From Escherichia phage 212: a stretch of 64,000 nucleotides of DNA. The notes under the pieces were generated by a model. It did no database searches. It was not told where the DNA came from and was given only the letters and a program-made list of their open reading frames with translations. Positions 30,729-31,992 of this stretch are shown here, piece by piece. The stretch lies in sequence record PQ765507; one strand, 5' to 3'. Each line of letters begins with the position of its first letter. Positions within the stretch are counted from its first letter, which is position 1. Both the position numbers and the translations under genes were made by a program.

Positions 30729-31061
30729 ATGAGCATCAAAACTTACAACGAGTTTTTAGCCGAATCCGCCATCAATGAGACCAAATCAATTGATGATAGT
30801 GAAGGCTCTCTGAAATTTGGTTTAACCAAAAATGCAGATGGTGTTTTCTTTCAGATTGGTAATGAACGTTTTCAAACGTCCAAATATTCCAAAGCTGCAG
30901 TTGAAGCTGTCCTGAAATCTGGTGGCAAGTGGAAAGGCAAAGAAGGTACTAAAGAAATTGGTATCGCTGTTGACGGTGGTATGGCTTATTTTAAAATTGG
31001 CGATGAACAATTTATTATGTCTGCTCGCGGACGTAAAGAACTGGCAAAACTTTATAAATAA
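30729..31061 (+). CDS. internal-protein-like protein with capsid targeting sequence
   Basis: N-terminus MSIKTYNEFLAE resembles T4 IPI/IPII/IPIII CTS (MKTYQEFIAE) with L-x-E cleavage site for gp21. Confidence 0.6.
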   Translation: MSIKTYNEFLAESAINETKSIDDSEGSLKFGLTKNADGVFFQIGNERFQTSKYSKAAVEAVLKSGGKWKGKEGTKEIGIAVDGGMAYFKIGDEQFIMSARGRKELAKLYK

Positions 31062-31069
31062 GGTTTCTT

Positions 31070-31342
31070 ATGAAAACTTTCAATGAATTTTTCAACGAGT
31101 CCCAACTGAACGAAGAAGTAAAAATTAGTAAAGCAGTCAAAGCTATGATTGACAATATCAATCACTTGTATAGCATTGACTTGACTGACCATATAACAAT
31201 TGGTAACAAACGCAACTTTTTCGCGTTTGACATTTCAGAACTTGACCAGAACCAAATTAATAACATTGAGCGTTTTGCCAATGACAAGGGTCTCCGTCAT
31301 GAGACAGCTGGTTATAAAAAATATGCAATTTATCTAAAATAG
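31070..31342 (+). CDS. internal-protein-like protein with CTS
   Basis: N-terminus MKTFNEFFNE. Confidence 0.6.
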   Translation: MKTFNEFFNESQLNEEVKISKAVKAMIDNINHLYSIDLTDHITIGNKRNFFAFDISELDQNQINNIERFANDKGLRHETAGYKKYAIYLK

Positions 31343-31350
31343 GATTTCAA

Positions 31351-31650
31351 ATGCAAACTTTTCATGAATTTTTGGTAGAAAACAATTACCTGGCGGAAGC
31401 AAAAACCTGGCCTCTGGGTCTTCAGAAGAAAAACACCTACAAATGGGTTGACTTCAAAGGTAAAGGCGACGCTGAAGACTTTGACCAGCTGCGCAAAAAT
31501 GGTTATACCTTCCTTGACTCCAACTATAACAAAATTACCTCTTTTAGTCAGAAGTCAAGCATTGCCTTCATTGAAACTGGTAAGAACTCTCCTAAAGATA
31601 TTTCTGACGACTTCGCCGCTTATGGTGTAATTCGTGGTTCAAAAATGTAA
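31351..31650 (+). CDS. internal-protein-like protein with CTS (paralog of 44153..44416)
   Basis: N-terminus MQTFHEFLVE; shares DAEDF..KNGY.F...IAF..GK motif with the 44153 gene. Confidence 0.55.
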   Translation: MQTFHEFLVENNYLAEAKTWPLGLQKKNTYKWVDFKGKGDAEDFDQLRKNGYTFLDSNYNKITSFSQKSSIAFIETGKNSPKDISDDFAAYGVIRGSKM

Positions 31651-31657
31651 AAATGTA

Positions 31658-31696
31658 ATGTACGTGATGGGATAGTTGCAGTATAATTATCCCATC
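31658..31696 (+). promoter_or_regulatory. early promoter with stem-loop over the -10 (PeSL-like)
   Basis: ATGTAC -35-like; perfect 9 bp stem GATGGGATA/TATCCCATC with TATAAT in the 13 nt loop. Confidence 0.55.
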
Positions 31697-31713
31697 AACT
31701 ACTGGAGCTACTA

Positions 31714-31992
31714 ATGAAAACTTATCAAGAATTTATTAACGAATCAATTAGTCACCCGGATATGCTGGAAGACCTGAAAGGACATCTGATGGTTAAGGCC
31801 CGACCGGTTGATGGTGGCGCATTTGAGTTGTTTCTTGTTAAAGGCGAAAACGGTCCTGATAACAAGAAAGTTTCAGCAATGATGTTGACTAAAGGTTACA
31901 AAGTCAGTTCTTCCTGGAATGCACCATTCACTTACGCGGTAAGCCCTCGTGAACTGAAAAAAGTTAAAGCTGGACAATATACAAAAATTTAG
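31714..31992 (+). CDS. internal-protein-like protein with CTS
   Basis: N-terminus MKTYQEFINE. Confidence 0.6.
   Translation: MKTYQEFINESISHPDMLEDLKGHLMVKARPVDGGAFELFLVKGENGPDNKKVSAMMLTKGYKVSSSWNAPFTYAVSPRELKKVKAGQYTKI

Follow-up and report, generated by a model that had tools for sequence, protein, structure and literature searches.

Between positions 30729 and 31992 of the 64,000-nt stretch of Escherichia phage 212 DNA analyzed here (sequence record PQ765507; hereafter the window) lie four consecutive plus-strand open reading frames (ORFs) of 110, 90, 99, and 92 aa, and the products of all four begin with a leader of the type found on the internal proteins (IPs) of bacteriophage T4. Very probably, these genes are cassettes of a hypervariable IP locus, at the position of T4 ipI, that encodes injected anti-defense proteins in a VR7/SP18-like T4-type phage. 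This interpretation draws on the leaders, a gene for the gp21 protease, synteny with T4 ipI, polymorphism of the cassettes among relatives, and the repeats that bound them. To judge from its sequence, the window is from a VR7/SP18-like Gaprivervirus, a T4-like phage (Straboviridae, Tevenvirinae), and the region of the locus is 95%–98% identical to Gapriverviruses including P479, CJ20, VR7, VR20, and SP18. The four genes are as follows.

30729..31061, plus strand: ORF1, 110 aa, leader MSIKTYNEFLAE followed by SAINE; phrog_3966
31070..31342, plus strand: ORF2, 90 aa, leader MKTFNEFFNE; phrog_7673 (internal head protein)
31351..31650, plus strand: ORF3, 99 aa, leader MQTFHEFLVE followed by NNYLAE; phrog_2667 (internal head protein)
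31714..31992, plus strand: ORF4, 92 aa, leader MKTYQEFINE; phrog_15565 (listed as unknown function)

A shared leader on unrelated proteins

A sequence-only reading that preceded this analysis had described four neighboring ORFs with T4-type leaders, and the N-termini (MSIKTYNEFLAE, MKTFNEFFNE, MQTFHEFLVE, and MKTYQEFINE) are exactly as it quoted them. Its statement that T4 IPI, IPII, and IPIII begin MKTYQEFIAE holds for IPII and IPIII, but IPI begins MKTFKEFTSTTTPVSTITE. Translation of the window in all six frames yields seven matches to the motif T[FY]xEFxxE, each of them where a plus-strand ORF begins, against an expected count of 0.035 from residue frequencies and a mean of 0.025 (maximum, 1) in 200 shuffles.

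Genetic work on T4 IPIII has assigned residues 4 and 7 of the capsid-targeting sequence (CTS) mainly to targeting and residues 8 and 10 to processing, with gp21 cutting after L/I-x-E (PMC9026906). The targeting determinants are present in all four ORFs, as an aromatic residue at position 4 (Y, F, F, and Y, respectively) and F at position 7, if ORF1 is counted in register, after its two-residue N-terminal extension. Glutamate stands at position 10 in all four, and L or I at position 8 in ORF1, ORF3, and ORF4. Each ORF has the gp21 motif, as LAE at residues 10–12 of ORF1, LVE at 8–10 of ORF3, INE at 8–10 of ORF4, and LNE at 13–15 of ORF2, where it is the first L-x-E; second L/I-x-E sites occur at residues 15–17 of ORF1 and 14–16 of ORF3. 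The protease gene lies where the sequence-only reading had placed it.

154..792, minus strand: gp21 prohead serine protease, next to the portal gene (Peptidase_S77, 6.6e-102)

Codon usage in the leaders is informative about the level at which they are maintained. The invariant residues are specified by different synonymous codons (T3 by ACT or ACG, E6 by GAG or GAA, and E10 by GAA or GAG), position 4 is encoded by TAC, TAT, TTC, or TTT, and positions 5 and 9 are free to vary. Because the invariant residues are kept despite synonymous codon changes, selection on the leader acts on the peptide.

Downstream from the leader, the sequence-only reading had found the ORF bodies to be unrelated to one another, and the comparisons agree: the mature parts have no pairwise similarity detectable by BLASTP (best E = 15), and the ORFs fall into four different PHROGs, two of them internal head protein families (7673 and 2667) and two listed as unknown (3966 and 15565). 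The predicted mature proteins are 8–11 kDa, and all except that of ORF2 are basic (pI 9.1–9.6). Homologs of two of the four, ORF2 and ORF3, are labeled “ip9 / internal head protein” in VR7, VR20, and SP18; VR7 and RB32 carry ORF2 under the name “ip9,” and the ORF3 homolog is an “internal head protein” in the RefSeq record of VR7. Among the records examined, ORF1 and ORF4 have no IP annotation, and searches of Pfam, NCBIfam, and PDB sequences with the IP-like proteins returned nothing over threshold. The leaders, the L/I-x-E sites, the gp21 gene, the synteny described below, and the ip9 and internal head protein labels together support the earlier proposal that these are diversified T4-type IPs. 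That interpretation is right but not new, because diverse, injected anti-defense effectors that share only a leader are already the published view (PMC3012670, PMC9026906, PMC12373910).

Genomic position and cassette variation among relatives

The array occupies the slot between 57B and trna.4, which is the position of ipI in T4: the order is 57A-57B-[IPs]-trna.4-trna.3 in the window and 57A-57B-ipI-trna.4-trna.3 in T4. On the left flank, 57A matches PF17594. The Pfam match of 57B and this shared gene order uphold the earlier statement that the array adjoins 57B at the ipI position. Because 57B is the anti-CBASS phosphodiesterase Acb1, the IP array also adjoins a known anti-defense gene.

30213..30668, plus strand: 57B, Acb1 anti-CBASS phosphodiesterase, left flank (PF23474, 1.5e-59)
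32050..32235, plus strand: trna.4-like small membrane protein, right flank

The content of the 57B–trna.4 slot differs from phage to phage. In the following lines, A to D denote ORF1 to ORF4 and F a further 73-aa cassette.

Window and P479: A-B-C-D
VR7: A-B-C-D-ip6
EAWsc9: A-B-C-ip5-ip6'
VR26: A-B-ip5-ip6
UPEC07: A-B-ip5-ip6'
MN01: A-B-ip5-ip6'-F
SP18: A-B-C (frameshifted)-D

The frameshifted ORF3 copy of SP18 (L008 2647–2929) is annotated as a misc_feature. ORF2 is identical in most of the relatives examined, and the VR7 and VR26 copies are intact with one leader substitution. The ORF1 family is found directly after 57B in the window and in Pectobacterium phage PM2 (L010 1507–1836), but in Citrobacter phage Merlin (L009 1507–1854) it is flanked by endolysin and denV. 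Because its slot differs between Merlin and PM2 or the window, cassettes must move between two IP loci.

The window has a second IP locus as well, flanking the lysozyme gene e (42872–43363) and denV (43697–44104) at the T4 ipIII/ipII position. This brings the leader-bearing genes in the window to seven over two loci (four and three); the sequence-only reading had named only the four.

43372..43641, plus strand: IP gene directly after e, 89 aa, MKTYQEFLAE followed by SVLNE; phrog_8765 (internal virion protein)
44153..44416, plus strand: IP gene after denV, 87 aa, MKTYQEFITE; paralog of ORF3 (38% identity over 61 aa)
44474..44773, plus strand: IP gene behind a GATGGGATA/TATCCCATC hairpin promoter, 99 aa, MKTYQEFITE; phrog_2667

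Promoter-hairpin repeats at cassette borders

The cassettes are bounded by repeats with a constant layout, in which an early promoter (GTGTAC/GTTTAC-N18-TATNAT) has its −10 element inside a GATGGGATA/TATCCCATC hairpin and is followed by CAACTAC and a ribosome-binding site (RBS). Against an expectation of 1.27, the promoter pattern has 12 matches in the window, of which 11 lie on the plus strand; z scores for the hairpins range from −2.7 to −4.3. A 63-nt direct repeat, with copies 84% identical, stands on both sides of ORF4, and the 3' arm recurs without mismatch ahead of the IP gene at 44474 and again at 50717.

Promoter-early stem-loop (PeSL) cassettes have been proposed as agents of modular shuffling in T4-type phages (PMC2839356, PMC4122927). 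The window has the PeSL arrangement, in which early promoters with a stem-loop recur along the edges of variable genes, and cassette content differs after such sites. From these cassette patterns, we infer recombination at the PeSL-like sites.

30668..30712, plus strand: PeSL-like cassette upstream of ORF1, GTGTAC-N18-TAATAT overlapping the hairpin GTGTAGG/CCTACAC (−14.8 kcal/mol, z −2.7)
31642..31704, plus strand: PeSL-like cassette, 63-nt repeat copy 1, ATGTAC-N18-TATAAT, hairpin GATGGGATA/TATCCCATC (−19.5 kcal/mol, z −4.3)
31976..32038, plus strand: PeSL-like cassette, 63-nt repeat copy 2, upstream of trna.4
43641–43685, 44420–44460, and 50717–50728: further PeSL-like copies
31053..31060, plus strand: T4 late-promoter consensus TATAAATA, 10 nt upstream of ORF2

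Over the whole window, TATAAATA is enriched (15 copies versus 5.5 expected). Most of these lie within the structural-gene block (1–26650) and have minus-strand orientation; only four, including that at 31053, are on the plus strand.

ORF1 and ORF4, the cassettes without IP annotation

Members of the ORF1 family occur in 55 phage records from several genera and are “hypothetical” in the records inspected. In Gaprivervirus, the third codon of ORF1 is ATC, CTC, or GTC, and the start lies two codons upstream, behind a good GGAG; codon 3 looks like a decayed ancestral ATG. We rejected the longer, 121-aa form of the gene (start at 30696) that is annotated in VR7 (L001 2985–3350), P479 (L003 2997–3362), and SP18 (L008 1992–2357). 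It overlaps the promoter −10 element and conceals the leader, and its extension, in the stretch 30696–30735, is not in frame with the rest of the gene in EAWsc9, UPEC07, or MN01.

ORF1 is an internal duplication (score 48 vs. 21 ± 4 in shuffles). Its AlphaFold model consists of two bbbba repeats (pLDDT 76.6, pTM 0.63; the four other models have pLDDT 53–65), and the predicted fold resembles that of Whirly/PUR-like proteins, which we regard as a lead only. No sequence-level match to any Pfam family or PDB chain backs the predicted fold, and a BFVD fold search with the model recovered only the protein's own ortholog.

ORF4 was found in 17 phage records from several countries, all Gaprivervirus-type, where it is 97.8%–100% identical and either “hypothetical” or unannotated. 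In a set of 5.8 billion proteins it falls into one cluster only, and an exhaustive search of 1.84 billion representatives, which returned nothing besides ORF4 and two long repeat proteins, detected no homolog outside Gaprivervirus. The repeat proteins (P0013 and P0014), which matched residues 61–89, were rejected as repeat-driven artifacts because their scores are sums of weak matches to a repeated stretch of ~25 aa.

The array lies upstream of a tRNA gene cluster at 32711–32944, downstream from trna.3, with tRNA-Met(cat), tRNA-Asn(gtt), and tRNA-Arg(tct). The tRNA content varies among relatives: VR7 has Met only, EAWsc9 has Ile2 and Arg, and SP18 has Met, Asn, and Arg.

How the proteins may act

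If these proteins behave like their T4 counterparts, the leader would dock each of them on the scaffolding core during prohead assembly, and gp21 would then cut after L/I-x-E. Cuts would be expected after E12 and possibly E17 of ORF1, after E10 and possibly E16 of ORF3, and after E10 of ORF4; ORF2 would likely be cut after E15, because of the F at position 8. The 8–11 kDa mature proteins, perhaps in hundreds of copies, would remain among the packaged DNA and be co-injected with it, by analogy with T4 (PMC3012670, PMC9026906).

Each of the T4 proteins Ip1, Ip2, and Ip3 inhibits a single GmrSD type IV enzyme, without cross-protection (PMC12373910), and leaderless IPIII is active in the cytoplasm (PMC9391042). 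On that model, each mature protein here may neutralize a different first-line host defense. The most likely targets would be modification-dependent (type IV) nucleases directed against hydroxymethylcytosine (hmC) DNA, and the enemies that matter may be enzymes directed at hmC, not the glucosyl-hmC-specific GmrSD. An arms race of this kind could diversify the array through cassette swapping.

Evidence against and alternative explanations

Several points weigh against the interpretation of these genes as injected anti-defense IPs, or against parts of it. The ORF2 leader has FNE at positions 8–10, with F replacing L/I at position 8, and the mature part of ORF2 is nonbasic (pI 6.8). Gaprivervirus ORF1 has two extra residues before its leader, whereas most of its homologs begin directly with MKTY.EF. 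Only ORF2 among the four has a canonical late promoter just upstream; this is no argument against packaging, because T4 ipI, ipII, and ipIII, which have the same early-promoter/hairpin layout upstream, are also without TATAAATA. Individual cassettes are dispensable, given the frameshift in the SP18 copy of ORF3. Comparison of the mature domains with Ip1, Ip2, and Ip3 yielded no homology by BLASTP (none better than E = 0.6) or by PHROGs, and a literature search for Gaprivervirus virion proteomics, N-terminal, or injection data found none. In a published screen against 15 GmrSD groups, none of ip4–ip10, among which ip9 should fall to judge by the numbering, inhibited reproducibly (PMC12373910). 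Further, VR7 DNA is reported to be modified, not glycosylated, and fully BREX-sensitive (PMC6326788); the targets may therefore differ from the glucosyl-hmC-specific GmrSD of T4.

Three other explanations deserve consideration. The proteins might be packaged yet have their main role inside the head, in core or head assembly or in neutralizing DNA charge. The basic character of three of the four mature proteins would suit such a role, as would the ORF1 model, whose fold is typical of nucleic-acid binders, and in T4 the lysines of IPs touch DNA phosphates, and without IPIII head assembly is slower and the burst smaller (PMC3012670, PMC9026906). We nevertheless consider this unlikely: a head role would not predict unrelated sequences, presence and absence among phages that are otherwise 95%–98% identical, or a tolerated pseudogene, all three characterized T4 IPs are defense inhibitors (PMC12373910), and T4 IPs are dispensable on laboratory hosts (PMC9026906). 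Still less probable is that at least one cassette is a decaying or functionless passenger of the shuffling. Suspicion falls especially on ORF2, with its F at a processing position, and on ORF4, without a homolog beyond one genus, and the ORF3 frameshift in SP18 points the same way; but ORF4 is intact and nearly invariant in its 17 records, ORF2 is conserved as described above, there are no internal stops, and ORF2 retains a fallback L-N-E at residues 13–15.

It is highly improbable that the 5' ends are alike because they form a module for recombination or translation initiation that is kept at the DNA level, with products that are unpackaged, cytoplasmic early proteins. The leader DNA and RBS are indeed repeated (65%–81% identity), and the genes stand behind early-type promoters, with one canonical late promoter only. 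However, the key residues stay the same where their codons differ synonymously, adjacent positions vary, and the conserved positions 4, 7, 8, and 10 are the genetically mapped targeting and processing determinants of T4 IPIII (PMC9026906). The early-promoter/hairpin context, without an upstream TATAAATA, is moreover shared by the T4 genes ipI, ipII, and ipIII, whose products are packaged. We thus favor the explanation that the four genes are cassettes of an injected, anti-defense IP array.

A separate and more tentative proposal, which we think rather unlikely, is that at least one of the four proteins represents a type of injected effector so far undescribed among T4-type IPs and acts against a non-GmrSD defense. 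Candidates may be ORF1, as a putative Whirly/PUR-like binder of single-stranded nucleic acid, or the genus-restricted ORF4, and the targets may be, for example, hmC-directed McrBC-, McrA-, or BrxU-type enzymes or a nucleic-acid-sensing system. Such an effector would suit a genus whose cytosines are reported to be modified but not glycosylated.

Significance

The locus was correctly recognized as one of a known kind. The finding is real, well supported, and ordinary for a T4-type phage; it leaves current understanding unchanged. What it adds are two cassettes that had not been annotated as IPs, one family without a detectable homolog outside its genus, a predicted Whirly/PUR-like fold, a corrected ORF1 start, and documentation of the hairpin-promoter repeats for the genus. 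Injected proteins are a phage's first answer to restriction-type defenses, because they act before phage gene expression, and they help to determine host range. Since 2025, all three T4 IPs have been known as inhibitors of distinct type IV restriction enzymes. With seven genes in two loci, the phage offers a compact and cheap set for deletion and complementation screens, and the set is of use in the choice or engineering of therapeutic T4-like phages.

Comparison with known systems

Arrays of diverse, leader-tagged IPs were reportedly described as injected inhibitors of type IV restriction by Repoila in 1994. The same concept is set out by Rao & Black (2010) and Silas (2025), and at least 10 ip genes have been recognized by their leader since 1994 (cited in PMC12373910). 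The named T-even IP series used for comparison here is that of Repoila et al. 1994, Mullaney & Black 1996, Bair et al. 2007, and Silas et al. 2025.

The repeats resemble the PeSLs of Arbiol et al. (2010) and Comeau et al. (2014) in that an early sigma-70-like promoter and a hairpin border variable genes in hyperplastic regions. The consensus is TTTACW-N17-TAYWAT in PST/T4-type PeSLs and GTGTAC/GTTTAC-N18-TATNAT in the window. They differ in the hairpin GATGGGATA/TATCCCATC, which is specific to this phage group. The ORF1 model, at moderate confidence, is likened to the Whirly, PUR-alpha, MRP1-MRP2, and SsgB fold of single-stranded nucleic-acid-binding bbbba repeats; it differs in that ORF1 has no sequence match to any Pfam family or PDB chain, and its nucleic-acid binding is putative.

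The closest parallel is with the T4 and T-even IPs. All four ORFs belong to PHROGs other than those of T4 Ip1 (phrog_4363), Ip2 (phrog_7857), and Ip3 (phrog_5341), and Gaprivervirus differs from T4 in that its cytosine is reportedly modified and non-glycosylated. With T4 IPI–III and T-even ip4–ip10 and beyond, the four ORFs share an N-terminal CTS with an L/I-x-E gp21 site and small products, of which three are basic. They also have in common with the T-even IPs the same two genomic slots (57B–trna.4 and e–denV), unrelated mature domains, and presence/absence polymorphism, and ORF2 itself belongs to the annotated ip9 family of the T-even series.

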